DNA of 34,945 nucleotides from Candidatus Woesearchaeota archaeon (GTDB lineage: Archaea > Nanobdellota > Nanobdellia > Pacearchaeales > GW2011-AR1), in the NCBI GenBank assembly GCA_964600565.1, contig CAZRJS010000007.1:1-34945 (forward strand), read 5' to 3'. The notes below the pieces were generated by a model. The model was given only the letters and a program-made list of their open reading frames with translations, did no database searches and was not told where the DNA came from. Below, piece after piece: positions 5,955-21,839 of this stretch (position 1 is its first letter; every line of letters starts with the position of its first letter). The position numbers were made by a program, and so were the translations under genes.

Positions 5955-5989
5955 ATTAATAAAGAATTTCTTATTAATAAAAATTTCAA
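5955..5989 (+). repeat. 35-nt direct repeat, copy 1 (33/35 identical to 13767..13801)
   Basis: attaataaaGaatttcttattaataaaaattTcaa versus attaataaaAaatttcttattaataaaaattCcaa. Contains an imperfect palindrome, ttaataa..ttattaa. Weaker similarity continues ~100 nt to the right in both copies. Confidence 0.7.
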
Positions 5990-6126
5990 TGGGGCAATGA
6001 GATAAGATTCTTTTTTAAACACATAAAGAAATCTAAAAAGAGGGGTTTTTAGAAAAGATTATTAAAATAAAGGGAATTCAATAAAACTTTATAACAAATC
6101 ATTCATCTCCTGAAAAAAACACAATC

Positions 6127-6494: not shown

Positions 6495-7349
6495 TTATTT
6501 ATTACTAAGATTTCTATTTGTTTTAAAAATTTTTTTCTTAGCTTTTTTATTTGATAAACATTCATATAATCGCATGAAATCTGGGTTTACAAGCTCAGTT
6601 CCTCTTCTTCCAGATAATTCTTTTGGTAGATTGAATAAATCTAATATTCTTTCCTTTCCTAAATAACAAATTTCTCCTCCAATAGAAAGGTAATTTATTA
6701 CACTGTTGGTTAAAGAATCTCCTAATGGTCTCTTCCTTTGTTCCCAGATACTCCTAAAGATATAATCTTCAAATCTTGCTGTTGATTTTTTTCGGGGTTT
6801 TATAGAAATTAATGCTCCATTTACAGAAGGTTCAGGATTAAAACTATTTGAGGGAATTTTCATAAGGTATTCTGTATCAAAAAATGCATTTGTAAGGATA
6901 GCTAATCTGCTAATGGGGGTTGTATCTGGAAGAATTCTTTCTTGATATGATTCAATATTATTAGCCTGTTTTTCTCCAACAAGGAGTGTAGCTGATTTAA
7001 ATCGTTCAGAATAAAGTCTATTAAATAAAGGTTCTGTAATATTAAAAGGGATATTTGATACTATTTTATCAATACCTTTTGGCCATTTTGAAGATAAAGC
7101 ATTTCCCATTACAATCTCTATATTTGAAAATTTATTTTTAATTTCCTGAAGATCATCTTTTAAATGGGAATCTTTTTCTATTACAGTAACTTTTTTTGCA
7201 AATTCAGCTAAATATTTTGTTAAAAAACCTTTTCCAGGACCAATTTCTAATATATGATCTTTAGATTCAACTTCTGCAAAAAAAACCATGTCTTTAGCTA
7301 TATCAGGATTAATTAAAAAATGTTGATTTTTATATATCTTATCTGGCAT
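6495..7349 (-). CDS. rRNA adenine dimethyltransferase family protein (KsgA/Dim1/Erm-like), paralog 1
   Basis: 284 aa. NQHFLINPDI, SAM motif ILEIGPGKGFLT, VTVIEKD, and catalytic IVSNIPFNITEPL (N-[LI]-P-[YF]). Confidence 0.75.
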   Translation of the reverse strand: MPDKIYKNQHFLINPDIAKDMVFFAEVESKDHILEIGPGKGFLTKYLAEFAKKVTVIEKDSHLKDDLQEIKNKFSNIEIVMGNALSSKWPKGIDKIVSNIPFNITEPLFNRLYSERFKSATLLVGEKQANNIESYQERILPDTTPISRLAILTNAFFDTEYLMKIPSNSFNPEPSVNGALISIKPRKKSTARFEDYIFRSIWEQRKRPLGDSLTNSVINYLSIGGEICYLGKERILDLFNLPKELSGRRGTELVNPDFMRLYECLSNKKAKKKIFKTNRNLSNK

Positions 7350-7432
7350 AAAAAAACAAATTTCCCCCCATTTATAAAAGTTACTATTTAATAATAATTA
7401 CATTTAAGTAATTAATTCTTCTTTTAGAAATG

Positions 7433-7444
7433 TTTTTATATAAA
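7433..7444 (+). promoter_or_regulatory. TATA-like box upstream of queD block
   Basis: tttttatataaa lies ~20-28 nt upstream of the queD ATG (7462). This suggests a leaderless or near-leaderless transcript. Confidence 0.3.
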
Positions 7445-7461
7445 TGTTAATTTGAAATTAT

Positions 7462-7806
7462 ATGATAGTGGCAAAAGAGTTTGTATTTGATTCTGCACAT
7501 AAATTAAAATGGCATAAGGGGAAGTGTAAAAATCTTCATGGTCATACATACAAATTACAAATTTTAGTTGAAGGTAAATTAAACAAACAGGGGATAGTTA
7601 TAGATTTTGGAGATATGAAAAAAATAATTAAGAGAGAAGTTATTGAAAAATTAGATCATAGATATCTAAATGAAATTATAAAAAATCCTACTGCAGAAAA
7701 CATATCTATATGGATTTGGGAAGAATTAAAAGATAAGATTAAAGATCTTAAAGAGATAAGATTGTGGGAAACTCCAACTTCATTTGCAATATATAATGGA
7801 AAATAA
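7462..7806 (+). CDS. queD: 6-carboxy-5,6,7,8-tetrahydropterin synthase (PTPS family)
   Basis: 114 aa. FDSAHKL...KCKNLHGHTYKL is the Cys-x3-HGH catalytic/zinc signature of QueD. Confidence 0.9.
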   Translation: MIVAKEFVFDSAHKLKWHKGKCKNLHGHTYKLQILVEGKLNKQGIVIDFGDMKKIIKREVIEKLDHRYLNEIIKNPTAENISIWIWEELKDKIKDLKEIRLWETPTSFAIYNGK

Positions 7807-8443
7807 AACTCTAAAAATAAATGAAATTTTCACAAGCATACAAGGAGAAGGAATTCAATCAGGATTGCCCACAATTTTTATTAGATTAACTGGATGCAAT
7901 CTTCGATGTAATTGGTGTGATACTAAATATGCTTATAATAAAGGGAGAGATAAAAATCTTATAAATATTTTAAAAGAGATTAAAAAATTTAAAATTAAAA
8001 ATATTTGTATTACCGGAGGAGAACCTTTACTTCAAAAAAATTTATTGTTATTCATTAGATTATTAATTGAAGAAAAATACAAGATTTTAATAGAAACAAA
8101 TGGCTCTTTGGATGTGTCTTTGATTCCAAAAGAGGTTTTAATTTCTTTAGATATAAAATGTCCTTCTTCAAATGAGAGCAAAAAAAATTTGTTATCAAAT
8201 TTAAAATTTTTAAAAAAGAAAGATCAATGCAAATTTGTAATAAATGATTATAAAGATTATTTATATGCAAAAAGGATAATAAAAAAATATAATCTTATTA
8301 AAAAAATAAATATTTTTTTTACCCCTGTTGGGGGAAAAAACGCTAGAAATTTAGTTGAATGGATTTTAAAAGATAAACTTAATATAAGAATCGGATTACA
8401 AATCCATAAGATAATTTGGGGCGATAAAAAAAGGGGTGTATGA
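7784..8443 (+). CDS. queE: 7-carboxy-7-deazaguanine synthase (radical SAM)
   Basis: EIFTSIQGEGIQSGLPTIFIRLTGCNLRCNWCDTKY is the QueE-type CX3CX2C cluster with a SIQGEG motif. The start may be Met5 (7796). It overlaps the queD stop. Confidence 0.9.
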   Translation: MQYIMENKTLKINEIFTSIQGEGIQSGLPTIFIRLTGCNLRCNWCDTKYAYNKGRDKNLINILKEIKKFKIKNICITGGEPLLQKNLLLFIRLLIEEKYKILIETNGSLDVSLIPKEVLISLDIKCPSSNESKKNLLSNLKFLKKKDQCKFVINDYKDYLYAKRIIKKYNLIKKINIFFTPVGGKNARNLVEWILKDKLNIRIGLQIHKIIWGDKKRGV

Positions 8444-9216
8444 TGAAAGATATTCAAAATCAAAAAGAATTTAGGGGGATTAGACTAAATGAAGTTGGGA
8501 TTAAACATATAAAGTTGCCTGTAAGAATTTTAGATAAAGGTAAAAAAGTTCAACATACTATTGCAGAATTTCATCTTGTTGTTTCATTAGATAAAAATAA
8601 AAGAGGAACTCATATGAGTAGATTTGTTGAAATTTTAGATGAATATATTAAAAAAGATTTAAATTTAAAAGTATTAGGAGAAATTGTTTCTGAAATGAAA
8701 AAAAGATTAGAAGCAATTGATTCTAAAATTATTATGAAATTCCCCTATTTTAAACGAAAAATGTCTCCCATATCAAGGAAAGAATCGATTTTAAATTACG
8801 AATGTTGTTTCACTTGTACTGGAAAAAATTTTGAAGATAAGATTATTGAGGTAAATGTTCCAATAACTACTTTATGTCCTTGTAGTAAAGAAATAAGTAG
8901 ATTTGGAGCCCATAATCAGAGAGGTTTTGCTAGGGTGAGAATTATTTCTTCAAAAAATATTTGGATAGAAGATATAATTAATCTTGTAGAAAAAGAAGCA
9001 AGTTGTGAGATATTTCCTTTATTGAAGAGGGTTGATGAAAAATATGTGACAGAAAAAGCGTATATGAATCCAAAATTTGTTGAAGATGTTGTAAGAGATG
9101 TTGTAAAGAAGTTGAAAAAAAATAAATCGATAATAAGTTATGAAATTGGATTATTAAACAACGAAAGTATTCACCTCCATGATGCTTATGCTTCAGTTTC
9201 AGGAGAAGTAAAATGA
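8440..9216 (+). CDS. folE2: GTP cyclohydrolase IB (FolE2/MptA family)
   Basis: 258 aa. GTHMSRF, TLCPCSKEIS and GAHNQRG motifs are typical of FolE2/MptA. 4-nt ATGA overlap with queE. Confidence 0.85.
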   Translation: MMKDIQNQKEFRGIRLNEVGIKHIKLPVRILDKGKKVQHTIAEFHLVVSLDKNKRGTHMSRFVEILDEYIKKDLNLKVLGEIVSEMKKRLEAIDSKIIMKFPYFKRKMSPISRKESILNYECCFTCTGKNFEDKIIEVNVPITTLCPCSKEISRFGAHNQRGFARVRIISSKNIWIEDIINLVEKEASCEIFPLLKRVDEKYVTEKAYMNPKFVEDVVRDVVKKLKKNKSIISYEIGLLNNESIHLHDAYASVSGEVK

Positions 9217-10892
9217 AGTATGTTTTAGGTGTAAATGCAGGATTAGAAAGAACCCATGATTCTTCAGCATGTTTATTCAGAAAGGGTAAGTTAATTGCAT
9301 TTGCTGAGGAAGAAAGATTTATAAGAAAAAAACATGCTTATAATCTTCTGCCTCATAATGCAATCAGATTTTGTTTGAATGAAGGAAAAATTGATGTTAA
9401 TGAAATAGAAAAGATAGCAGTTTCATGGGATTTTCCTAAATTTTATAGTCAGATTGGTAAAAAATTTCCTTCAAAAAATAATTTTAAAAAAAAATTATTC
9501 CCAAAAAAATATTATAAAAAGGTTAGTGCAGAAATTGTTTATGTGAATCATCACTTAGCACATGCTTCAAGTGCTTTTAGGTGTTCTGGATTTAATAAAT
9601 CTGCTGTTTTGATAATAGATGGTCAGGGAGAAGATTTTTCTACTAGTATTTGGGTTGGAGAAGGAAAGAAAATAAAATTTGTAAAAGGTTTCGATATATT
9701 TCATTCAATAGGCTATTTATATGAAGCTGCTAGTAAATATCTTGGTTTTAGATTAGACCAATCTGGAAAAACAATGGGTCTTTCTGCATATGGAAAGAAA
9801 AAATATGATTTTGAAGATTTGATCAAATTTATTCCTGAAGGTTATATATTGAATATTAAAGAAAAACTTTATCAAGAAATTGACTTTCAAAAGATTGTAT
9901 CTGATTCTTTTATTAAATACTTTGAAAAAAAAATTGGCCCAAAAAATAAAAGAATTTATCTATGGGATGAAAGAGATAGTATTATAGATAATAAAGTTTA
10001 TCTTAATAGAGAAGATGAAAATTTTGCTGCTTCTATTCAAGAGATAATTAATAGATTATTTATTCATCTTTCAAAAATTGCATTAAAATTAACAGGCACG
10101 TCAAAATTGTGTATTGCTGGAGGAGTTGGTTTGAATTGTGTAGGAAATGGCAAAATATTAGAAGAAAATATTTGTGATGAACTTTATGTACAACCTATAG
10201 CAAATGATGCTGGGACAAGTATTGGGGCAGCAATGGAGATTTTATCTAATGAAGGAGAAGATATTAATTTTAAAATGGATGACGTATACTATGGTCCAAA
10301 TTTCTCAAATAAAGAAATAGAAAAAATAATTGAAAAGAATAAATTAAATTATGAATACCTTAATAATCCTTCAAAGACTGTGGCCAAAATGATTTATGAG
10401 GGAAAAATTATAGGTTGGTTTCAGGGAAAAATGGAAGGTGGTCCTCGAGCATTAGGTAATCGGAGTATTCTAGCTGATCCAACTAACCCTAAAATAAAGG
10501 ATTTTGTTAATGAAGTAAAATTTAGAGAAAAATGGAGGCCACTTTGTCCAAGCATAATTGAAGAAGTAAAAGAAAAGTATCTTGAATTTCCTTATGATTC
10601 CCCGTTTATGACAATTAATTTTAAGATAAAAAAAGATAAGATAGAAAAAATTCCTTCAGCAGTTCATATTGATGGTACCGCAAGGGTACAGACAGTTAGT
10701 AAAAAAACCAATGCCCTCTATTGGGATTTAATAAGTGAGTTTGGAAAATTATCTGGAGAACAAGTTATCCTAAATACTTCAATGAATTCTAAAGGAGAAC
10801 CAATTGTATGTAGTCCTAATGATGCTATAAAGAATTTTTATACTTCTCAAATGGATGCATTGGTAATGGGTAATTATCTTATTGAAAAATGA
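9213..10892 (+). CDS. NodU/CmcH/TobZ-family carbamoyltransferase
   Basis: 559 aa. N-terminal LGVNAGLERTHDSSACLF and VNHHLAHASSAF (ASKHA/Kae1-like metal site), plus a C-terminal GPRALGNRSILADP motif. 4-nt overlap with folE2. Confidence 0.85.
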   Translation: MKYVLGVNAGLERTHDSSACLFRKGKLIAFAEEERFIRKKHAYNLLPHNAIRFCLNEGKIDVNEIEKIAVSWDFPKFYSQIGKKFPSKNNFKKKLFPKKYYKKVSAEIVYVNHHLAHASSAFRCSGFNKSAVLIIDGQGEDFSTSIWVGEGKKIKFVKGFDIFHSIGYLYEAASKYLGFRLDQSGKTMGLSAYGKKKYDFEDLIKFIPEGYILNIKEKLYQEIDFQKIVSDSFIKYFEKKIGPKNKRIYLWDERDSIIDNKVYLNREDENFAASIQEIINRLFIHLSKIALKLTGTSKLCIAGGVGLNCVGNGKILEENICDELYVQPIANDAGTSIGAAMEILSNEGEDINFKMDDVYYGPNFSNKEIEKIIEKNKLNYEYLNNPSKTVAKMIYEGKIIGWFQGKMEGGPRALGNRSILADPTNPKIKDFVNEVKFREKWRPLCPSIIEEVKEKYLEFPYDSPFMTINFKIKKDKIEKIPSAVHIDGTARVQTVSKKTNALYWDLISEFGKLSGEQVILNTSMNSKGEPIVCSPNDAIKNFYTSQMDALVMGNYLIEK

Positions 10893-11674
10893 AATTAACA
10901 ATATTAATTCCAGTATCAGATGATATAAGAATAAAAAGATGTATTGAAAGCATTGACGAAGATGTAGAAATTATTATTATTTTTAATTTTCCTTCAAAAG
11001 AAGTAAAAACAATAATAAAAAATTTATCAGAAAAATATAATCTTTTAACTACAGAAATAAATGAAAGAAATCTTGCAAAAGCATATAATCTTGGAACAGT
11101 TATGGCATTAAATAATAATATTCTGCTTATGGATTCTGACTGTATTTTTGAAAAAAATACAATTAAGAAATTACAAAAAGGTATGGATAAAAATTTTTTA
11201 TCAAAAGGGAGAGTTATTTATCAAACTTCTGGATTTATTAGTAGAATAATTGCGGGACTAAGAAATTACATTACTGTTGATAGAATTTCTGCGTTTAGTC
11301 CTCCTTTAATATTCAGCAAAAAAATTAAAAAGAAAATAAAAGGATATTATTTTTATGAAAAGTTATGCTGGATAGAAGATGCTGAATTTAATGAACGTGT
11401 TCAAAATGCCAAAGTTAAAATTTCTTATGATTCTTCTGCAGTTATTTATCATGATAAACTTACATTAAAAGAAGATTTAAGGAGTTCATATAGATATGGT
11501 ACTGGAAGAGCAATTGCAGATAAAGAAAAATTATTTAAAAATGAAATAAGGAGGGGTAATTCTAAGGACTTCCTTAATATTTTTAAAAAGAAGGGTTTTC
11601 TAATAGCTAGTTATTCTTTAGTTTGGAATATATTCTTTAGATTTGGATATAAAAAAGAAATGAAAAATAATTAA
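10889..11674 (+). CDS. Family 2 glycosyltransferase (GT-A fold)
   Basis: 261 aa. LTILIPVSDD start, NLAKAYNLGTVMALNNNILLMDSDC (DxD-type). 4-nt overlap with the carbamoyltransferase gene. Its stop shares TTAA with the stop of the convergent queC. Confidence 0.7.
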   Translation: MKLTILIPVSDDIRIKRCIESIDEDVEIIIIFNFPSKEVKTIIKNLSEKYNLLTTEINERNLAKAYNLGTVMALNNNILLMDSDCIFEKNTIKKLQKGMDKNFLSKGRVIYQTSGFISRIIAGLRNYITVDRISAFSPPLIFSKKIKKKIKGYYFYEKLCWIEDAEFNERVQNAKVKISYDSSAVIYHDKLTLKEDLRSSYRYGTGRAIADKEKLFKNEIRRGNSKDFLNIFKKKGFLIASYSLVWNIFFRFGYKKEMKNN

Positions 11675-12315
11675 TTTAAATATTCTGTTCTGTCAATCTT
11701 TCCCGCTTTTTTAAATGCCGCTTTACGTTCTTTACAACTTCTGCATTTACCACATTGTTTTTTAAAATTTTTATAGCAACTCCAAGAATGATATAAAGGG
11801 AATTCCGAATTAATTTTAATCATTTGGTATTTATTTTTATTTACAAATGGTTGTTTTAATTTTATTTTGTCATAAGAACTGTATTTTAATACTTTGTTAA
11901 AAAGATTTCCAAATTTAAAATTATTATCTGGAAAAGAGTCTTCTTTAGTACTACCTAACCAGACTTCACTAATCTTATAATTTACTCCAAATGAAGAAGC
12001 TAAGCTTAGAAATAGAAGATTTCTTAATGGAACCCATTCTTTTTTCTTATTTTTTGATTTTCCTTGCATAAAAGAATTAGTGAATCCTAGATTAATTTTT
12101 CTATTTATTAAAGTTATTCTTATATCCTTAGATTTTTTCTTATTTTCTTTGATGAATTTTTTAAGTGCTTCTAATTCTTTTTTAAAATTTTTTTGACCAT
12201 AATTAAAAAAAATAAGAACGGGTTCTCTCTTTTTTAATATAGCTTTAGATATTAAACATACTGAATCTAATCCCCCTGAAGTTAAAATTAATACTTTCTC
12301 AGGCTTTCTTTTCAT
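11671..12315 (-). CDS. queC: 7-cyano-7-deazaguanine synthase-like PP-loop ATPase (QueC paralog 1)
   Basis: 214 aa. PP-loop LILTSGGLDS, NYGQKN, VPLRNLLFLSLA, and the C-terminal four-Cys zinc cluster SCYKNFKKQCGKCRSCKERK. Confidence 0.8.
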   Translation of the reverse strand: MKRKPEKVLILTSGGLDSVCLISKAILKKREPVLIFFNYGQKNFKKELEALKKFIKENKKKSKDIRITLINRKINLGFTNSFMQGKSKNKKKEWVPLRNLLFLSLASSFGVNYKISEVWLGSTKEDSFPDNNFKFGNLFNKVLKYSSYDKIKLKQPFVNKNKYQMIKINSEFPLYHSWSCYKNFKKQCGKCRSCKERKAAFKKAGKIDRTEYLN

Positions 12316-13045
12316 ATTTTGTGTCTTTTAGGTTTAATCTTTTGAATATTAGCCTTCTTCTAACGCAATGTTGGCATTCTCCACATTGGGGAGAGGTTCC
12401 TTTAAGGCAGTTATAAGTTAGATGTAAGGGAACTTTCAATTTAACTCCTAGTTTAATAACGTCTTCTTTTGTCATTTTTTTATCTTGGAATGGGAACTCT
12501 ACTGAAATCCCATTAATATTGCTAAATTTTGAAATTTCTTTTGCTCCATTACACCAAAAAGAGGTTTCATCTGGAAAAGAAAGATTTTCTTTTAATATTG
12601 GGTCTTTTATAGAATAATGAATTATTGAGAAAGCAACTTTATTGTATCCTTCAGCTTCTGCTCCTGCCATTAATTCAGCTAAAAAATATAGATTTCTTGC
12701 AGGAGTCCATAAAAATTCTGCTAGTTTTCTTTCTCTTTCTAAATCATTAAGATCTTCCGGAGTTGTTTTTGGAAATTTACTTTGTTTTCCAACAATCGTT
12801 CCACTTCGATATACTTTTCCGAATTTTTTCAGTCTTTTCAAGTCTATAATTTCATATGAAAAATTTTTATAATTTTTCTGGATAAATGAAGCAATTCTTT
12901 TAATAGCTTTTAATTCCTGAAACTTAATCTTTTGCCCATAATCAAAGTAAATACCTTTTACAGTATATCCTTTTTTCAAATAATCAACAGCTAGAACTGT
13001 GCTATCAATACCGCCTGTAAAAGTCATTCTTACTTTTTTATCCAT
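12299..13045 (-). CDS. QueC-like PP-loop ATPase, divergent paralog 2
   Basis: 248 aa. MTFTGGIDS, FDYGQK, TPARNLYFL, and C-terminal YNCLKGTSPQCGECQHCVRRR. It carries an extra ~20-aa acidic/basic insert (TTPEDLNDLERERKLAEF) relative to paralog 1. Overlaps both neighbours. Confidence 0.7.
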   Translation of the reverse strand: MDKKVRMTFTGGIDSTVLAVDYLKKGYTVKGIYFDYGQKIKFQELKAIKRIASFIQKNYKNFSYEIIDLKRLKKFGKVYRSGTIVGKQSKFPKTTPEDLNDLERERKLAEFLWTPARNLYFLAELMAGAEAEGYNKVAFSIIHYSIKDPILKENLSFPDETSFWCNGAKEISKFSNINGISVEFPFQDKKMTKEDVIKLGVKLKVPLHLTYNCLKGTSPQCGECQHCVRRRLIFKRLNLKDTKYEKKA

Positions 13046-13656
13046 TTTATGTTAAATACTTCTGCATATCCTCCTGGAATCTCGTTTAAAATACCATAAT
13101 ATTCATTTAAGCCTTTAACAGCTCGATCATATCTAATCTTTTTTATTTGGGACTTATATTCATTTATGAGCTTTAGTTTTTTGTCTAAATATTTGCTAAT
13201 ATTTTGTATAAAATTGTATTTAACTAAGGGGGTCCATATACAATATTCAAAAATTTCTTTTGTTCTTTTACAGGGTTTTCCTAATTTTAAAAAGATTGGT
13301 GTTGAAGACATCCAAATAGCTTCTTTTAGAAGTTCGTTGCAAACCTTGTGATCGTGATCTCTTTCAAGTTCATGAGGGATATAAATTGTTTCAGGATTAA
13401 TTTTTCTTATATGTTTTATTAAATTTCCTAAATTTTTTTTGTTATATTGAAAAGGTTCATTTATTTTGAGAAAAGTATAGCTCTTAATTCTTGCTTTTTT
13501 CTGAACTTTTTTTGATTCTTTTTCTCTTATTTTAGAACCAATGTAACCCATGATTATCACATGCACATCATGACCTTCTTCTATCTTTTTTAGAATTGTT
13601 CCACCACAACCGATAATTTCATCATCTGGATGAGGGGCTATTATTAGGATTTTCAT
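13030..13656 (-). CDS. PIG-L/LmbE-family N-acetylglucosaminyl deacetylase
   Basis: 208 aa. N-terminal ILIIAPHPDDEIIGCGGT is the family signature. A downstream HDHKV fits the zinc site. Confidence 0.8.
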   Translation of the reverse strand: MKILIIAPHPDDEIIGCGGTILKKIEEGHDVHVIIMGYIGSKIREKESKKVQKKARIKSYTFLKINEPFQYNKKNLGNLIKHIRKINPETIYIPHELERDHDHKVCNELLKEAIWMSSTPIFLKLGKPCKRTKEIFEYCIWTPLVKYNFIQNISKYLDKKLKLINEYKSQIKKIRYDRAVKGLNEYYGILNEIPGGYAEVFNIKWIKK

Positions 13657-13766: not shown

Positions 13767-13801
13767 ATTAATAAAAAATTTCTTATTAATAAAAATTCCA
13801 A
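13767..13801 (+). repeat. 35-nt direct repeat, copy 2
   Basis: See 5955..5989. It lies 111 nt upstream of the PIG-L start; copy 1 lies 103 nt upstream of the 5852 start. Confidence 0.7.
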
Positions 13802-13901
13802 GAGGAAAATTAAATCATATTCATTTTTTAAGTTTGTGAGTATAAAAAGAGAAATATAAAAAGCAAGTTTAATAAAAGATTAGATTTATTTGCCAAAAAT
13901 C

Positions 13902-14708
13902 TTATTTTTTAATAATTAATTTAATCTTATCATAAATTATTAAAATCATCTTTCCAGAAATATTGCTGACTTTTTTTTCAAGAGTTTTATCATTGAGATG
14001 AAATTCTTTTAATAAGGTTTTTGCCTCATTTTTTGTATAACCTTCATTAACAAAAAAAGAGATAATTGCATTTTTTATTTTTCCTTTTCTTTTGAGAATA
14101 AATTTTATAGATTCATTATATTTATCTCCTGTTTTCATTGTTAATTTTAATAACCAGGAATTTACTCTTGGGGGTGGTGAAAAAGAAGATTTTTTCACTT
14201 TTTCTATAATTTTTATATCATAAAAGAGATTAGCAATTATGCCAGATTTAGTTGAATTATCAATTAACAGATTTTTAAAATTTTCTCCAATAATAAAAAC
14301 AATAAAAGGAATATCTGTTATAACTGCCTTAGCAATGATTTTTTCTCCAAGATAATAAGGGATATTTGAAACAATTTTATCATATCCTTCCCAAGAGTAT
14401 TTTGTAGCATCACCATAAATAATCTCTAAATTTTTATATTTATTTTTGATTAATTCCAACTTTTTTTTATATTGTATATCAATCTCAAAACTAAGAACTT
14501 TTTTTGCTTTTTTTGCTAGTTCATTTGTAAGCATACCCTCTCCAGCCCCAATTTCAATAATCTTATCTTTTTTAGACAGGGATGAATTTTCTATTTCCTT
14601 CTTTAAAACCAGTTTATCAACTAAAAAATGTTGCCCTTTTTCTAAATTATTTTTTGAATTTGTTTTGTTCCAAAGAAATATCTTTTTCATATTAATTAAT
14701 ACCCTCAA
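13902..14708 (-). CDS. rRNA adenine dimethyltransferase family protein (KsgA/Erm-like), divergent paralog 2
   Basis: 268 aa. GQHFLVD, IIEIGAGEGMLT, SFEIDIQY, YGDATKY, IVSNIPYYLGEKI. Only distantly similar to paralog 1, judged by eye. Confidence 0.75.
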   Translation of the reverse strand: MRVLINMKKIFLWNKTNSKNNLEKGQHFLVDKLVLKKEIENSSLSKKDKIIEIGAGEGMLTNELAKKAKKVLSFEIDIQYKKKLELIKNKYKNLEIIYGDATKYSWEGYDKIVSNIPYYLGEKIIAKAVITDIPFIVFIIGENFKNLLIDNSTKSGIIANLFYDIKIIEKVKKSSFSPPPRVNSWLLKLTMKTGDKYNESIKFILKRKGKIKNAIISFFVNEGYTKNEAKTLLKEFHLNDKTLEKKVSNISGKMILIIYDKIKLIIKK

Positions 14709-14793: not shown

Positions 14794-14881
14794 TTTGCAA
14801 TATTTTAATGTGTGATAAGTTTTAAGCTTGATTAGAATAATATTTATCCTTCTTTCATAGTTAAAGGTTTTGAACAAAAGG

Positions 14882-14891
14882 TTTTTTATAT
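14882..14891 (+). promoter_or_regulatory. TATA-like box upstream of ABC ATPase gene
   Basis: ttttttatat is centred ~25 nt upstream of the likely start at 14912. Confidence 0.3.
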
Positions 14892-14911
14892 CTAATTTAT
14901 GTTATTATAAA

Positions 14912-15619
14912 ATGAAAAAGAGTGAAATTTTGATAAAGCTAAAAGATGTTGAGAAACATTATCGCATAGGAGAAAAGAATATTGTCAAAGCTGTTGATGG
15001 TATAAGTATATCAATAAAAAAAGGGGATTTTGTCGCTGTAATGGGTCCAAGTGGTTCTGGAAAAAGCACATGCATGAATCTTATTGGAAGTTTAGATGTT
15101 CCAACAAAAGGGACTATACATCTTGGAGGAGAAAATATCTCTTATCTTAGCGAGTCTGATTTAGCAGAATTGAGAGGAATGCAAATTGGTTTTATTTTCC
15201 AGCAGTTTAACCTTATACCTAATTTAACTGTTAAAGAAAATGTAATGTTGCCAATGGATTTTCAAAGAATTTCTGGTAGAGAAAAAGAAGAAATTGCAGA
15301 AGAAATTTTAGAGAAAATAGGATTGGAAGAAAGAATGGATTTTTATCCTAATCAACTTTCTGGAGGTCAACAACAAAGAGTTGCAATTGCAAGAGCTCTG
15401 GCAAATAATCCAGAGGTTATTTTAGCAGATGAACCAACAGGAAATCTTGATACAAAAACAGGGCAAAAAGTTATGGATTTTTTAGAAGAATTAAACAAAG
15501 AAGGAAAAACAATAATTATGGTTACTCATGACCCTAATTTAGCAAATGAACATGCAGATATTGTTTATTGGCTTATAGATGGAAAAGTGCAAAAAATAAC
15601 TGGAAAAAAGAGTAAGTAG
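14912..15619 (+). CDS. MacB/LolD-type ABC transporter ATP-binding protein
   Basis: Walker A GPSGSGKST, signature LSGGQQQRVAIARAL, Walker B ILADEPTGNLD. The ORF opens at 14870, but MKKSEILIKLKDV at 14912 fits family N-termini and the TATA spacing. Confidence 0.85.
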   Translation: MKKSEILIKLKDVEKHYRIGEKNIVKAVDGISISIKKGDFVAVMGPSGSGKSTCMNLIGSLDVPTKGTIHLGGENISYLSESDLAELRGMQIGFIFQQFNLIPNLTVKENVMLPMDFQRISGREKEEIAEEILEKIGLEERMDFYPNQLSGGQQQRVAIARALANNPEVILADEPTGNLDTKTGQKVMDFLEELNKEGKTIIMVTHDPNLANEHADIVYWLIDGKVQKITGKKSK

Positions 15620-17976: not shown

Positions 17977-18849
17977 ATGTTTAGACACATTCCAGTTTTA
18001 CCAGAAGAAGTTTTAGAAAATTTTAGAAGTTTAAAAAAAGGAGAAATAATAATAGATGGAACAATTGGGAAAGGGGGGCATTCTAAACTTCTTTTAGAGG
18101 AAGGTTTTGAAGTTATTGGTATAGATAGAGATAAAGAATCAATAGAAGAGGCAGAAAAGAATTTACAAAATTTTAATATAAAAATTGTAAATGATAATTT
18201 TTCACAAATTAAGCAGGTTTTATCAAAATTAGGAATAAAAAAGGTTGGGGGGATTTTATTAGATTTGGGGGTTTCAACATATCAATTAGAAAAAGCAGAA
18301 AGAGGATTTGGTTTTGTAGGGGAATTGGATATGAGAATGAACCAGGACCAAAAATTAACAGCCAAAGAAGTTGTTAATGAATATTCAGAAAAGAAACTTG
18401 CAGATGTTTTGTATAAAAATGGAGAGAGGGTTAATGCAAGAAAAATTGCAAAAAGAATTGTAGATTATAGACAGAAAAGAAAGATTGAAACTGGTGGACA
18501 GCTTCTTAAATTAATAAAATACAGCCTTGATGAAAAATATAGAAAATCTAGAAAACATCACTGGGCAACTCCCACTTTTAGAGCATTAAGGATAGAAGTA
18601 AATAAAGATTATGAAAATTTAGAAAAATTTTTTGGGGTTTTTAGTAATTGTTTGAAAAAAAAGGGAATTTTGCAAATTATAACTTTTCATTCAATCGAAG
18701 AAAAAATTGTAAGGAAAAAATTAAGAGAATTAAAACAAAAGAAGGTTATAAAATTAATAACGAAAAGACCTTTTGAAGCAACTTTAAAAGAAATAGCAAA
18801 GAATCCAAAATCAAAAAGAGCAAAACTATGGGTTGCTGAACTGAGATAA
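17977..18849 (+). CDS. rsmH: 16S rRNA (cytosine-N4) methyltransferase RsmH/MraW
   Basis: 290 aa. HIPVLPEEVLE, DGTIGKGGHS, LLDLGVSTYQLEKAERGFGF, LDMRMNQ, FRALRIEVNKDYENL, ITFHSIEEKIV. Confidence 0.85.
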   Translation: MFRHIPVLPEEVLENFRSLKKGEIIIDGTIGKGGHSKLLLEEGFEVIGIDRDKESIEEAEKNLQNFNIKIVNDNFSQIKQVLSKLGIKKVGGILLDLGVSTYQLEKAERGFGFVGELDMRMNQDQKLTAKEVVNEYSEKKLADVLYKNGERVNARKIAKRIVDYRQKRKIETGGQLLKLIKYSLDEKYRKSRKHHWATPTFRALRIEVNKDYENLEKFFGVFSNCLKKKGILQIITFHSIEEKIVRKKLRELKQKKVIKLITKRPFEATLKEIAKNPKSKRAKLWVAELR

Positions 18850-19425: not shown

Positions 19426-20637
19426 ATGGTAAATTATTTTTCATTTGCATTTAAAAACTTGAAAAAAAGAGGAATTAGGAGTTGGCTAACTCTTCTAGGA
19501 ATTTTTATTGGGATTGTTGCAGTTATTTCTTTAATCACACTTGGAAATGGACTAAAAGAGGCTGTTAATTCTCAGTTTGGTGTTGAATCAACACAAATTA
19601 TAAATATTCAAGCAGGGGGTTTAAATTATGGTGCTCCAGGTTCAACAGTTGTAAATCCTTTAACAAAAGAGGATACAAAAGCTATTCAGAGATTAAGCAC
19701 TATAGAATATGCAGTCCCGAGAAATATTAGATTTGGGTCAATGGAATACAATGATAAAATTGAATTTGGATATGCAGTTAGTATTATTGAGGGTTATGAA
19801 AAAGAAAGTTATGAAATGATGGATTTAAAAGCTGAAAAAGGCAGATTGCTAAGTTCAGGAGATTTAGGAAAAGTTATTTTGGGAAATACTCTCTCAAATG
19901 GAAATAAAAATGGTTTTGATAAGGATATTGATGTTGGAAAAAAGATTCTTATAGAGGGTGAGAAATTTACAGTTGTAGGGATTATGGAAAAAAAAGGCAG
20001 TTTTATGATAGATGGAATTGTTTTAATGTATGACCAAGATTTAGAAGATTTAATCGGTTATGGCGATGATGTTGATATAATTGGAGCCAAAGTCAAAGAC
20101 AGTAATTTAATGGATAGGGCAAAAGAAGATATTGAAAAATTATTAAGAAATAGAAGAGGTGTTAAAAAAGGTGAAGAAGATTTTAAAGTATCAACTCCAG
20201 ATTCTTTGTTAAGTCAGGTTAATAGTGTGTTAAATGCTATCCAGATATTTATTGTGCTTATTGCATCTATAGCAATTTTTGTTGGAGCTATTGGAATTGT
20301 TAATACAATGGCAACTTCTGTTGTTGAGAGAAAAAAAGAAATTGGAATTATGAAAGCTATTGGAGCAAAAAACAAACATATATTTATGCAATTTTTTGTT
20401 GAGTCTGGATTGATGGGACTTATTGGAGGTGCTCTTGGAATTATTTTTGGTTTATTAATTGGATTTCTTGGAACATTAGCAATTAATAATTTTGTTGGGG
20501 CAGAAACAACTCCAGATATAAATATCCCTTTAATCTTCTTTGCCTTGCTTGGAAGTTTTATAGTTGGCTCTGTTGCAGGAATTATTCCGGCAATGAAAGC
20601 AGCAAAACAAAATCCCGTGGAGGCATTAAGAGGATGA
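19426..20637 (+). CDS. MacB-like ABC transporter permease (FtsX domain with large extracytoplasmic loop)
   Basis: 403 aa. N-terminal FAFKNLKKRGIRSWLTLLGIFIGI, a ~230-aa periplasmic-type domain, then a C-terminal three-TM FtsX module ending NPVEALR. Confidence 0.85.
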   Translation: MVNYFSFAFKNLKKRGIRSWLTLLGIFIGIVAVISLITLGNGLKEAVNSQFGVESTQIINIQAGGLNYGAPGSTVVNPLTKEDTKAIQRLSTIEYAVPRNIRFGSMEYNDKIEFGYAVSIIEGYEKESYEMMDLKAEKGRLLSSGDLGKVILGNTLSNGNKNGFDKDIDVGKKILIEGEKFTVVGIMEKKGSFMIDGIVLMYDQDLEDLIGYGDDVDIIGAKVKDSNLMDRAKEDIEKLLRNRRGVKKGEEDFKVSTPDSLLSQVNSVLNAIQIFIVLIASIAIFVGAIGIVNTMATSVVERKKEIGIMKAIGAKNKHIFMQFFVESGLMGLIGGALGIIFGLLIGFLGTLAINNFVGAETTPDINIPLIFFALLGSFIVGSVAGIIPAMKAAKQNPVEALRG

Positions 20638-21839
20638 TAACTCCACAAACAATAAAATATTCTCTAAGGAATATGAAACACAAAAAAACAAGAAATTTTT
20701 TCACGATTTTATCAATTTTTATTGGGATAACAACAATTTTTATTTTTATTAGTTTTGGACTTGGCCTTTATACTTATATAGGGGATCTTACTGAGGGTTC
20801 TTCAGCAGATAAGGTGATAATCCAACCTAAAGGAGGAACTTTAGCCATGTTTGAAAATCATGTGGAGTTTACTAATGATGACTTAAAAGCTATTGAAAGA
20901 GTTCCCGGGGTTTATGAAGTTTCTGGATCGTATTTTAAAACAGTTGAGATTAAGATGCAGGATAAAATACTTTATACTTTATTAATGTCTTACGACCCTG
21001 AAAAGCCAATTGTGCTGGAATCTTCAAATGTTAAATTAGAAAAAGGAAGGGAGTTGAGCGATAATAAAAGAGAAATTGTTTTAGGATATAATTATATGAT
21101 TGATGATAGAATATTTCCAAAAGCCATAAGATTAAATCAAAATATAGAAATGAATGGAGAAGACATAAAAGTCGTTGGATTTTTTAATGAAGTTGGAAGT
21201 AAACAAGATGATGCTCAAGTATATGTTTCAAATGATTATATGGATAAACTTTTTCCTGATGAAAATCTTTCTTATGGTTGGATTGTAGCTAAAGTTGATA
21301 TAAAGAATATTGATGGTGTTGTAGAAAAAATAGAAAAATCATTAAGAAGAGAAAGAAATCTTGATGAAGGTAAAGAAGATTTTCATGTACAATCTTTTAA
21401 TGATTTGATTGAAGGATTTTCCAGTGCACTTAATATTGTGATAGGATTTATTATTTTGATTGCATTAATTTCAGTTTTGGTTTCTGCAGTAAATACAGCG
21501 AATACAATGATTACTTCTGTTCTTGAAAGAATTAAAGAGATAGGGGTGATAAAAAGTATTGGTGCAAGAAATTCAGATATACTTGGAATATTTTTATTTG
21601 AATCCGGTTTCATAGGGTTTGTTGCAGGAGTTGTGGGTGTTTTAATTGGTTGGGCATTAAGTGCATTAGGAGGAGCAATATTAACTAATATGGGATATGG
21701 ATTTTTGCAACCAGATTTTCCCATAATTCTTTTTGTTAGTCTTATAATCTTTGCAACACTTACAGGGGCAGTCTCAGGAGTTTACCCTGCAATTAAAGCA
21801 TCTAAGATAAATCCTGTTGAAGCACTTAGATATGAATGA
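20634..21839 (+). CDS. MacB-like ABC transporter permease, second paralog
   Basis: 401 aa with the same architecture, ending NPVEALRYE. 4-nt overlap with the first permease. Confidence 0.85.
   Translation: MITPQTIKYSLRNMKHKKTRNFFTILSIFIGITTIFIFISFGLGLYTYIGDLTEGSSADKVIIQPKGGTLAMFENHVEFTNDDLKAIERVPGVYEVSGSYFKTVEIKMQDKILYTLLMSYDPEKPIVLESSNVKLEKGRELSDNKREIVLGYNYMIDDRIFPKAIRLNQNIEMNGEDIKVVGFFNEVGSKQDDAQVYVSNDYMDKLFPDENLSYGWIVAKVDIKNIDGVVEKIEKSLRRERNLDEGKEDFHVQSFNDLIEGFSSALNIVIGFIILIALISVLVSAVNTANTMITSVLERIKEIGVIKSIGARNSDILGIFLFESGFIGFVAGVVGVLIGWALSALGGAILTNMGYGFLQPDFPIILFVSLIIFATLTGAVSGVYPAIKASKINPVEALRYE

Follow-up and report, generated by a model that had tools for sequence, protein, structure and literature searches.

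What might an archaeon make from 7-deazaguanine when its genes for this base lie among genes for sugar-tailoring enzymes? The question was raised by a stretch of 34,945 nucleotides (nt) from a Candidatus Woesearchaeota archaeon (contig CAZRJS010000007.1 of assembly GCA_964600565.1; this whole stretch is referred to below as the window), in which genes for FolE2, QueD, QueE and two QueC-type, ATP-dependent amidating enzymes accompany those for a GT-A glycosyltransferase (GT2), a PIG-L de-N-acetylase and a carbamoyltransferase (CarbT), a combination which was found to be conserved across domains. Sequence comparison supports one pathway which would not feed ordinary archaeosine. It appears moderately likely that positions 6495-13656 (perhaps extending to 14708) form a single cluster for a free glycosylated, de-acetylated and carbamoylated 7-deazaguanine, and not for the modification of nucleic acids; the products appear to be a so far undiscovered family of bioactive small molecules.

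Conservation and arrangement of the gene cluster

One genome per species was scanned for the GT2 subfamily using its MDSDC motif and the 44 loci obtained were annotated locally (L denotes a locus, G a genome, with G000 the host assembly, P a protein and C a contig). At the 31 loci with a GT2 at least 36% identical to that of the window, at least one que gene was present within 10 kb in 25 cases, CarbT in 29 and PIG-L in 23, with all three found together at 19. The remaining 13 loci (GT2 27-38% identical), mostly from actinomycetes, had no que gene, no CarbT and no instance of all three; these Streptomyces and other actinomycete loci are different clusters and were used as a negative control. 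The co-occurrence of que genes with the tailoring genes, which the original prediction had put forward as a check, was thus borne out for this GT2 subfamily.

Carriers were identified in Bacillus, Paenibacillus, Thermoactinomycetaceae, Defluviitaleaceae, a Micrococcus metagenome-assembled genome (MAG), Patescibacteria, Chloroflexota and Pseudomonadota MAGs, Woesearchaeota/Nanoarchaeota, Aenigmatarchaeota and a Methanosarcinales-labelled MAG, the best-preserved versions being those of Bacillus, Paenibacillus, Clostridium and bacteria of the Candidate Phyla Radiation (CPR). The linkage recurs, with its order shuffled, in at least 25 species-level genomes from at least six phyla, and because the genes are ordered differently from one lineage to the next (Bacillota, Patescibacteria, Actinomycetota, Nanoarchaeota/Woesearchaeota and Aenigmatarchaeota), their association is maintained by selection.

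In public assemblies, the nearest homologues of CarbT and GT2 occur in this combination. An archaeal version on a 154-kb contig (L039) encodes RrnaAD, a helix-turn-helix (HTH) protein, QueD, QueE, FolE2, CarbT and a radical S-adenosylmethionine (SAM)/SPASM protein on one strand and a methyltransferase, a 402-amino-acid QueC, a P-loop protein, GT2, PIG-L and RrnaAD on the other; its proteins are 35-68% identical to those of the window (68% for QueD and 50% for PIG-L) and its gene order is different. The architecture of the window, with PIG-L-QueC2-QueC1 converging on RrnaAD-CarbT-GT2, was matched at L040, L041, L101 and L102, while L048, which belongs to a different family of the host's class, has the order CarbT-RrnaAD_L-GT2-QueC-(methyltransferase)-QueD-FolE2 with 4-nt overlaps. 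Clostridium disporicum and Metabacillus idriensis each carry GT2, PIG-L, CarbT, QueC, QueD, QueE and FolE, to which both add an ArcS-core (DUF5591) gene, a BpsA_C aminopropyltransferase-like gene and a three-gene ABC exporter, with a further tailoring gene for a NodS-like methyltransferase in M. idriensis and for a B12-radical-SAM enzyme in C. disporicum. Accessory genes vary by lineage throughout (BpsA_C together with a dedicated SAM decarboxylase; methyltransferases; radical-SAM enzymes; the ArcS core; and the ABC exporter), a pattern which, by analogy, reads as that of a diversifying natural-product family.

None of the 40 close relatives searched, which belong to the family or order of the host, carries the cluster; carbamoyltransferase homologues (36-45% identity) and stand-alone QueCs were found among them. 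In a phylum-wide sample of 400 other genomes, only 3 have FolE2. On account of these two distributions the cluster is an accessory trait. Its absence from close relatives was considered as a refutation and rejected, as it reflects a patchy, accessory distribution.

Within the window, the eight open reading frames (ORFs) between 7462 and 13656 were found with exactly the coordinates and overlaps at which the original prediction had placed them, and the family to which it had assigned each of them holds, all eight Pfam matches exceeding their gathering cut-offs. Its list of components was nevertheless one short, having missed the cluster-specific KsgA-like gene at 6495-7349 (Table 1). ATGA start/stop overlaps occur at 8440, 9213 and 10889, the remaining same-strand junctions overlap by 16-23 nt, and the plus- and minus-strand blocks converge in a common TTAA (11671-11674). 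The que genes and the tailoring genes are intermixed on each strand. The start of queE is either TTG at 7784 or ATG at 7796, with queD overlapped either way. RrnaAD_L and queD diverge on opposite strands, and the gap between them is a putative promoter region.

All six same-strand junctions overlap and, with the convergent junction, make a run of seven unbroken; this indicates two operons and is by itself no proof of a common pathway. Across the host genome, neighbouring genes overlap in 22% of same-strand and 19% of convergent pairs, which makes overlap alone weak evidence for one pathway. The argument from tight coupling to a single pathway, as originally made, therefore stands on the conservation described above (25/31 versus 0/13 loci) and not on the overlaps.

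Table 1. Features of the cluster and its flanks, with the evidence for each.
Feature	Positions	Strand	Evidence
RrnaAD_L, KsgA/Dim1-like SAM methyltransferase	6495..7349	-	Pfam RrnaAD, 132 bits
AT-rich divergent intergenic region between RrnaAD_L and queD, 112 nt	7350..7461	.	TATA-like boxes TTTATATA and TTTATAAAA; direct reading
QueD, 6-carboxytetrahydropterin synthase	7462..7806	+	PF01242 (PTPS), 129 bits
QueE, radical-SAM 7-carboxy-7-deazaguanine synthase	7784..8443	+	Radical_SAM, 59 bits
FolE2, GTP cyclohydrolase IB	8440..9216	+	PF02649 (GCHY-1), 291 bits
CarbT, NodU/CmcH/TobZ-family carbamoyltransferase	9213..10892	+	Carbam_trans_N, 165 bits; Carbam_trans_C, 222 bits
GT2, small GT-A glycosyltransferase of the GT2 subfamily with invariant MDSDC	10889..11674	+	PF00535, 42.4 bits (cut-off 23.3)
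QueC1, more canonical QueC paralogue	11671..12315	-	PF06508, 136 bits
QueC2, divergent QueC paralogue with two insertions	12299..13045	-	PF06508, 99 bits
PIG-L/LmbE-family de-N-acetylase	13030..13656	-	PF02585, 69.6 bits (cut-off 28.2)
RrnaAD_R, full-length KsgA/Dim1-type methyltransferase	13902..14708	-	Pfam RrnaAD, 123 bits

A 65-nt direct repeat (5955-6019 and 13767-13831), which brackets the DNA from a tRNA-Asp gene through PIG-L, was considered as the att pair of an island and rejected because its 31-nt palindromic core recurs at no fewer than nine other intergenic sites of the genome. The palindrome (approximately 31 nt, AT-rich, core TTAATAAAGAATTTCTTATTAA) was found in at least 11 intergenic places of the host assembly with 88-97% identity (window 5955-5985 and 13767-13797; G000 contigs C2, C3, C6 (two copies), C10, C25, C32, C63 and C69). 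The PIG-L-QueC2-QueC1 operon is preceded, at a distance of 110-140 nt, by one copy, and the palindrome is a candidate operator or terminator element. No island signal was detected in the base composition of the stretch, and scans for sigma-70 promoters and terminators, with models unsuited to an archaeon, returned results at shuffle level. Directly past RrnaAD_R lies a gene for an ABC ATPase (14870-15619), with two MacB/FtsX-type permease genes 5 kb further on (19426-21839); these are not conserved beside the L039 cluster and so were not counted as parts, though they could form a product exporter.

The enzymes and their host genome

FolE2 and QueD passed NCBIfam equivalog models (263.8 bits against a cut-off of 215 for NF010200 and 106.9 against 89.25 for TIGR03367, respectively), and the CxxxHGH motif of QueD is kept (CKNLHGH, residue 22). 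Four QueE models were among the five best NCBIfam matches of QueE, all below cut-off (249.6 bits against 300 for TIGR04349 and 206.9 against 260.1 for another model), and its CxxxCxxC motif is kept (CNLRCNWC). QueC1 (119.7 bits) and QueC2 (92.5 bits) both failed the QueC equivalog test (TIGR00364, cut-off 150.3), while retaining the PP-loop (SGGLDS in QueC1 and TGGIDS in QueC2) and the CX8CX2CX2C (Cys4) zinc site. Because both scores fall under the cut-off, either QueC may be a ligase and not a nitrile synthase, with the chemistry lying among nitrile formation, amide formation and ligation. Of the complete pathway to 7-cyano-7-deazaguanine (preQ0) claimed at the outset, FolE2 and QueD are thus covered by equivalog models, and QueE and QueC are identified by family, best matches and motifs. 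The que genes of the window are the only ones in the host assembly.

QueC1 groups in the tree with the cluster QueCs of L070 and L073, whose sources are an Aenigmatarchaeote and an uncultured bacterium; its identity to the counterparts at L040 and L041 is 46-48%. QueC2 forms a long orphan branch, with its two insertions seen in the alignment, and among 5.8 billion proteins only one relative of more than 30% identity was found (P0185, 57%), which comes from a second lineage and whose gene has the same PIG-L-QueC2-QueC1 surroundings; QueC2 is rare as a paralogue and evolves fast. In phages, a QueC variant has been described whose reaction is proposed to end at the amide, and the QueC homologues of roseomycin biosynthesis ligate 7-carboxy-7-deazaguanine (CDG) to an amine; by analogy with these, a ligase or amide-forming role for QueC2 is plausible. 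Most CPR and archaeal clusters have instead a single long QueC of 378-438 amino acids scoring 81-98 bits (L039 13422-14630; L048 8794-10044; L057, L058, L061, L063, L067, L080 and L083-L085). These long QueCs fall into two separate clades and have an N-terminal extension of 100-185 amino acids for which no Pfam match was found. The Bacillota versions of the cluster have one short QueC (280 bits).

Every catalytic motif which, it had been cautioned, might fail on proper alignment was found to be intact. In an alignment of 12 GT2 orthologues, D82xD84 and D164 are invariant and the E163-D164 'ED' pair is conserved; with its Pfam domain, its DxD motif (DSD) and a predicted GT-A fold (AlphaFold2 (AF2) model, predicted local distance difference test (pLDDT) 93, no transmembrane segment), the protein belongs to the GT2 family. 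Foldseek matched this model to GT2 structures with probability 1.0, the best being WrtF, AvpGT, TarP/TarS and hyaluronan synthase, and returned only the generic GT-A family, with no clue to the acceptor. Both the N (Kae1-like) and C (YrdC-like) domains of CarbT were above cut-off and its HHxxH (HHLAH, residue 113), GGVGLN and NDAG motifs are kept; it is not a NodU equivalog (NF041651, 181 bits against a cut-off of 1000), and its orthologues in the same cluster elsewhere are 54-58% identical. The HPDDE zinc motif of PIG-L lies at residue 9, and its best NCBIfam match was BshB1 (89.9 bits against 182.5), with MshB at 17.6 bits against 224, so that it is an equivalog of neither. No phosphoribosyltransferase was found in the window, nor any class-I small-molecule methyltransferase beyond the two RrnaAD genes.

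These two genes flank the eight ORFs. Both of their products failed the ksgA model TIGR00755 (147.8 bits for RrnaAD_L and 134.1 for RrnaAD_R, cut-off 171), RrnaAD_L was also under the Erm equivalog cut-off, and both are nearer to archaeal KsgA/Dim1, which provided their top Protein Data Bank (PDB) matches, than to Erm. NIPF and NIPY motifs were found in the pair, RrnaAD_L having NIPF together with GxGxG. RrnaAD_R covers positions 2-253 of the 263-position profile and RrnaAD_L only 9-225; residues 8-217 of the 284 of RrnaAD_L align in the PDB matches and the last 65 or so are unrelated, with the alignment to KsgA limited to the catalytic domain and the C-terminal domain divergent. In a maximum-likelihood tree, RrnaAD_L falls in a clade (support 100/100) of eight proteins, all linked to the cluster (window, L039, L048, L070 and L082-L085), some of whose genes lie inside the operon between CarbT and PIG-L. 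As its clade is exclusively cluster-linked, RrnaAD_L is, on phylogenetic grounds, counted as a component of the system, where its predicted role would be self-resistance by rRNA methylation or N-methylation of the product. The RrnaAD_R clade (100/100) includes copies from G018 and G432, members of the host's family in which the gene lies outside any such cluster, for which reason RrnaAD_R is probably the ordinary 16S dimethylase of the lineage; it stands beside the cluster in the window, L039, L040 and L101.

RrnaAD genes are rare in this lineage (3 of 40 close relatives and 83 of 400 genomes of the phylum sample). All three phylum-sample genomes with the GT2 subfamily have one, which in two cases lies on the contig of the GT2 gene at a distance of up to 6 kb, and an RrnaAD gene adjoins the cluster at 15 of the 31 close-GT2 loci, including those of CPR bacteria and a Nocardia. 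Two side observations concern these methyltransferases. In G018:C11 (L042 8699-9451 and 12326-13528), where there is no cluster, a KsgA of the RrnaAD_R type lies about 3 kb from the TGT gene of that genome. In the window, a gene for RsmH/MraW, the bacterial-type 16S rRNA m4C1402 methyltransferase (17977-18849, 281 bits, above cut-off), makes, with the two KsgA-like genes, three genes of small-subunit rRNA methyltransferase type within 12 kb.

The host assembly is 1.4 Mb in size, 87% complete and 3.2% contaminated, with a GC content of approximately 26%; the contig is archaeal, with genes for an archaeal/eukaryal-type uS10 and diphthine synthase, and the sequence occurs in marine and salt-lake metagenomes. 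The assembly exceeds nearly all of the 40 relatives (0.4-1.0 Mb) in size, which reflects either genuine accessory gene content or some mixed binning. These sizes are consistent with a DPANN archaeon of the Nanoarchaeota/Woesearchaeota group. A search for tRNA-guanine transglycosylase (TGT), ArcTGT and DpdA (PF01702) gave no candidates in this 87%-complete genome, its control being positive in 14 of 14 genomes, and neither the ArcS core (DUF5591, PF17884) nor QueF (PF14489) was matched in the window or the rest of the assembly. That the window lacks TGT/ArcTGT, DpdA, ArcS and QueF had been noted from the outset, and the statement extends to the rest of the 87%-complete assembly. PADLOC identified no defence-system model, only a generic QueC, a weak QatC tail, a viperin-like radical-SAM protein and a methyltransferase domain. 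TGT is patchy among the 41 genomes formed by the host and its 40 relatives (10 genomes, with whole frames of approximately 335-415 amino acids). Stand-alone QueC was found in six relatives, four of them without TGT, so that, with the host counted, five of seven QueC-bearing genomes are without it; preQ0 metabolism may often be uncoupled from tRNA in these DPANN archaea.

A proposed pathway and competing explanations

A small-molecule pathway is favoured by four observations: the host has a full deazaguanine route and no insertion enzyme in its 87%-complete genome, Bacillota carriers have a duplicate QueC beside TGT, bacterial versions include ABC exporters, and the accessory genes vary between lineages. 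Each of the four Bacillota carriers tested has two QueC copies and one TGT, from which the cluster would appear to bring a duplicate que set beside a housekeeping queuosine pathway. In the proposed route, FolE2, QueD and QueE would convert GTP via 6-carboxytetrahydropterin (CPH4) to CDG, and QueC1 would take CDG to the amide or nitrile (7-amido-7-deazaguanine (ADG) or preQ0). The inverting GT-A enzyme would then place an N-acetylhexosamine (HexNAc) from a nucleotide sugar directly on the free base, likely at the guanidine-like N2 by analogy with huimycin; the free base is the probable acceptor because no phosphoribosyltransferase is present, in contrast to the toyocamycin and tubercidin types (cf. 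huimycin). PIG-L would remove the acetyl group, freeing the 2-amine of the sugar, and the carbamoyltransferase, acting through carbamoyl-AMP, would carbamoylate either a hydroxyl of the sugar or the freed amine. QueC2, or the long QueC of most other clusters, would stop at the amide or ligate the CDG carboxylate to an amine, and the KsgA-like paralogue would N-methylate the product or methylate the small-subunit rRNA of the producer as immunity. The order in which GT2 adds HexNAc, PIG-L deacetylates and CarbT caps is one that we infer by analogy.

Several observations weigh against this reading. QueE and both QueCs fall under the NCBI equivalog cut-offs; the structural neighbours of GT2 are only 12-17% identical to it and act on polymers, glycans or a nucleoside; and there is no obvious exporter inside the cluster of the window. 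The large subunit of carbamoyl-phosphate synthetase, carbamate kinase, SAM synthetase (archaeal or bacterial) and a complete GlmU were not found in the 87%-complete assembly. Since the enzymes for their synthesis were not found, SAM, carbamoyl phosphate and the nucleotide sugar would have to come from a host or partner, or from unrecognised enzymes. Moreover, five or six of the 31 close-GT2 loci have no que gene within 10 kb while CarbT and/or PIG-L are present. Homologous clusters without que genes, which the original prediction had named as evidence that would count against it, are therefore a minority (L055/L059, L060 and L066, with L062, L065 and L079 at contig edges), and from them it follows that the sugar module can work in other contexts, with another aglycone or with distant que genes. 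One such locus (L055/L059, Woesearchaeota GCA_016930415.1) encodes a methyltransferase, GT2, PIG-L, a radical-SAM enzyme, a DUF3419 (BtaA-like) protein, CarbT, a second radical-SAM enzyme and a major facilitator superfamily (MFS) transporter, and its module may serve another aglycone.

The two QueC paralogues, a pair conserved in a second lineage and encoded with PIG-L in one overlapping operon, would also fit a different product, in which the sugar has no N-glycosidic bond to the base. Here a conjugate of glucosamine type would be assembled by GT2 and PIG-L on a different small acceptor, and a QueC-like enzyme (QueC2 in the window, the long QueC elsewhere) would adenylate the carboxylate of CDG and ligate it to the freed amine, giving a 7-carboxamide-linked deazaguanine-aminosugar by the logic of MshA/MshB/MshC or BshA/BshB/BshC. 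The low-scoring long QueCs of most CPR and archaeal clusters, the CDG-amine amides made by roseomycin-type QueC homologues and the resemblance of PIG-L to the bacillithiol deacetylase BshB1 point the same way. However, the single short QueC of the Bacillota resembles a normal nitrile synthase and is accompanied by a nitrile-acting ArcS-core protein, no acceptor-forming enzyme for GT2 is evident, and every ordinary QueC motif is retained by QueC2; this product is considered unlikely, though with a chance large enough to be kept in mind. It is improbable that the sugar-decorated 7-deazaguanine ends in tRNA, rRNA or DNA, with an insertion enzyme that is missing from the assembly or not TGT-like and with the KsgA-like paralogue marking the RNA target. 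Glycosylated queuosines do occur in animal tRNA, completeness of the genome is no more than 87%, rRNA is the substrate of KsgA/Dim1-like enzymes, of which one paralogue is found strictly with the cluster, and the ArcS catalytic core is present in the Bacillota variants. Against these stand the absence of any PF01702 candidate with a control positive throughout, the scarcity of TGT among related genomes including those with QueC, the ABC exporters of the bacterial versions, whose que genes duplicate those of a normal queuosine pathway, and the lack of a PADLOC defence-system model; we know of no base-exchange enzymes other than TGT and DpdA.

Pathways for envelope glycans and lipids typically employ enzymes of the GT2, PIG-L and NodU types; TarP and TarS, which transfer GlcNAc to wall teichoic acid, are among the structural neighbours of GT2; glycans are also exported by ABC-2-type transporters; and the carbamoyltransferase homologues of the relatives have no que genes nearby. 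The locus might on these grounds decorate an envelope glycoconjugate or lipid (a glycosylphosphatidylinositol (GPI)-like GlcN-lipid, S-layer or wall glycan), with the deazaguanine attached or unrelated, but the que linkage is specific to this GT2 subfamily and extends over phyla with very different envelopes, the cluster contains no flippase, polyprenyl-phosphate transferase or oligosaccharyltransferase, and the GT2 model has no transmembrane segment, making a surface-glycan function quite improbable. Scarcely any weight is left for a fortuitous adjacency in a gene-dense genome, in which the que genes would serve ordinary archaeosine and the tailoring trio would be an unrelated operon. Such an origin would accord with the genome-wide overlap of 22% of same-strand neighbours and with the stand-alone QueCs and carbamoyltransferases of close relatives; it is refuted in practice by a linkage that persists in shuffled order over so many species and phyla, by the interleaving of que and tailoring genes on both strands and by the absence of TGT.

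The favoured reading, a free glycosylated deazaguanine, has a more specific and rather doubtful extension. The cluster might be the archaeal member of a hitherto unrecognised, cross-domain, ribosome-directed 'deazaguanine aminoglycoside-like' family (7-deazaguanine bearing a de-acetylated, carbamoylated and N-alkylated hexosamine), with immunity by KsgA-like rRNA methylation in archaea and CPR bacteria, made by ultra-small DPANN and CPR episymbionts from host-supplied SAM, carbamoyl phosphate and nucleotide sugar and acting on the host or on competitors.

Comparison with known systems

To our knowledge, the characterised 7-deazapurine natural products (toyocamycin/sangivamycin, tubercidin, huimycin/dapiramicin and roseomycin) come almost all from actinomycetes. 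A three-enzyme logic like that proposed for the cluster is found in the carbamoyl-gulosamine of streptothricin, where the guanidino-N-glycosyltransferase StnG transfers HexNAc onto a guanidine-type nitrogen, StnI carries out de-N-acetylation and the carbamoyltransferase StnQ O-carbamoylates the sugar, giving a product that binds the small ribosomal subunit; in streptothricin, however, the aglycone is streptolidine lactam, the freed amine is beta-lysine-acylated by a nonribosomal peptide synthetase (NRPS) and resistance is conferred by an acetyltransferase. Nod-factor synthesis by NodC/NodB/NodS/NodU likewise combines a GT2 acting on GlcNAc, de-N-acetylation, N-methylation of the freed amine and 6-O-carbamoylation, and the methyltransferases of bacterial and some archaeal versions of the cluster match Pfam NodS; NodB nevertheless belongs to the polysaccharide-deacetylase family and not to PIG-L, and its substrate is a chito-oligosaccharide.

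Archaeosine, queuosine and Dpd systems share the upstream route from GTP to preQ0 but need ArcTGT/TGT/DpdA and ArcS, QueF or Gat-QueC, none of which was found in the host genome. A full pathway without a nucleic-acid insertion enzyme has been used as the rule for recognising secondary metabolism (bioRxiv 10.64898/2026.04.15.718813). The toyocamycin/sangivamycin/tubercidin type resembles the cluster in devoting a preQ0/CDG pathway to a secreted metabolite in a genome context with no nucleic-acid insertion enzyme; it differs in its phosphoribosyl pyrophosphate (PRPP)-dependent phosphoribosyltransferase, GMP-reductase-like and adenylosuccinate enzymes, which lead to 7-deaza-adenosines (bioRxiv 10.64898/2026.04.15.718813) and of which none is in the window. 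A different 7-deazapurine cluster, of nucleoside/nucleotide type, was observed in an archaeon of the same class as the host (L049; G219:C133, 2057-12385). It encodes an HTH protein, QueD, QueE, FolE2, a phosphoribosyltransferase, a 558-amino-acid radical-SAM enzyme, DUF5591, Ham1/ITPase, an FAD oxidoreductase, a methyltransferase, a thymidylate/deoxynucleoside-kinase-like protein, a canonical QueC and a pyruvoyl arginine decarboxylase, and its product may be a toyocamycin-like nucleoside or a modified (d)NTP.

In roseomycin A and the peptidyl-7-deazapurines, a QueC homologue couples the CDG carboxylate to an amine, forming a CDG-lysine amide in roseomycin (bioRxiv 10.64898/2026.04.15.718813), which offers a precedent for the presence of a second, divergent QueC in a deazapurine cluster; the partner is, by contrast, lysine or a peptide, and there are no sugar genes and no carbamoyltransferase. 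A 2026 survey of deazapurine clusters was restricted to bacterial genomes without TGT and made no mention of carbamoyl groups (bioRxiv 10.64898/2026.04.15.718813), a restriction which would have hidden the Bacillota members of the present family. No description of que genes, a carbamoyltransferase and a PIG-L deacetylase together was found in the full-text literature searched, which did not cover subscription journals. The original statement that no archaeal system of this kind had been described agrees with the searchable literature, although the system is not specific to archaea.

Should the favoured reading be right, the cluster defines another 7-deazapurine family, marked by GT2, PIG-L and a carbamoyltransferase and variably by aminopropyl transfer, methylation, the ArcS core and an exporter. 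As its hosts include culturable Bacillus, Paenibacillus and Clostridium besides the unculturable CPR and DPANN organisms, the chemotype is approachable via the Bacillota. Culturable carriers among the surveyed genomes are Bacillus mycoides GOE10, Bacillus sonorensis NBRC 101234, Paenibacillus thiaminolyticus BO5, Baia soyae DSM 46831 and Clostridium disporicum. The cluster is also a candidate effector of interactions between symbiont and host or between competitors. Two questions are raised: why genome-reduced, host-dependent archaea without TGT, SAM synthetase or carbamoyl-phosphate synthesis keep a pathway of approximately 7 kb, and what role is played by a KsgA/Dim1 paralogue with a replaced C-terminal domain which is found solely beside the cluster in a lineage mostly devoid of KsgA.

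The closest characterised relative is huimycin, which is O6-methyl-preQ0 N-glycosylated with GlcNAc and whose cluster adjoins a carbamoyltransferase gene, KALB_4074 beside huiG (PMC7439116). The huimycin (Kutzneria albida hui)/dapiramicin type combines a FolE/QueD/QueE/QueC set with a glycosyltransferase acting on the free base and has no phosphoribosyltransferase; the window was likewise found to hold a que set and a glycosyltransferase in one cluster, GT2 lying between CarbT and QueC1, without a phosphoribosyltransferase. The two differ in that HuiG is reported to belong to PF13439 (GT4-type; bioRxiv 10.64898/2026.04.15.718813) and the glycosyltransferase of the window belongs to PF00535. 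In huimycin, moreover, the N-acetyl group is retained, no PIG-L is described and the adjoining carbamoyltransferase is dispensable; its O6-methyltransferase HuiC (PF08241) has no counterpart in the window, and its hosts are actinomycetes and not DPANN, CPR or Bacillota. A dedicated preQ0/CDG pathway leading to a tailored metabolite is thus of a known kind, while the tailoring set, the KsgA-like paralogue and the DPANN and CPR hosts are new.

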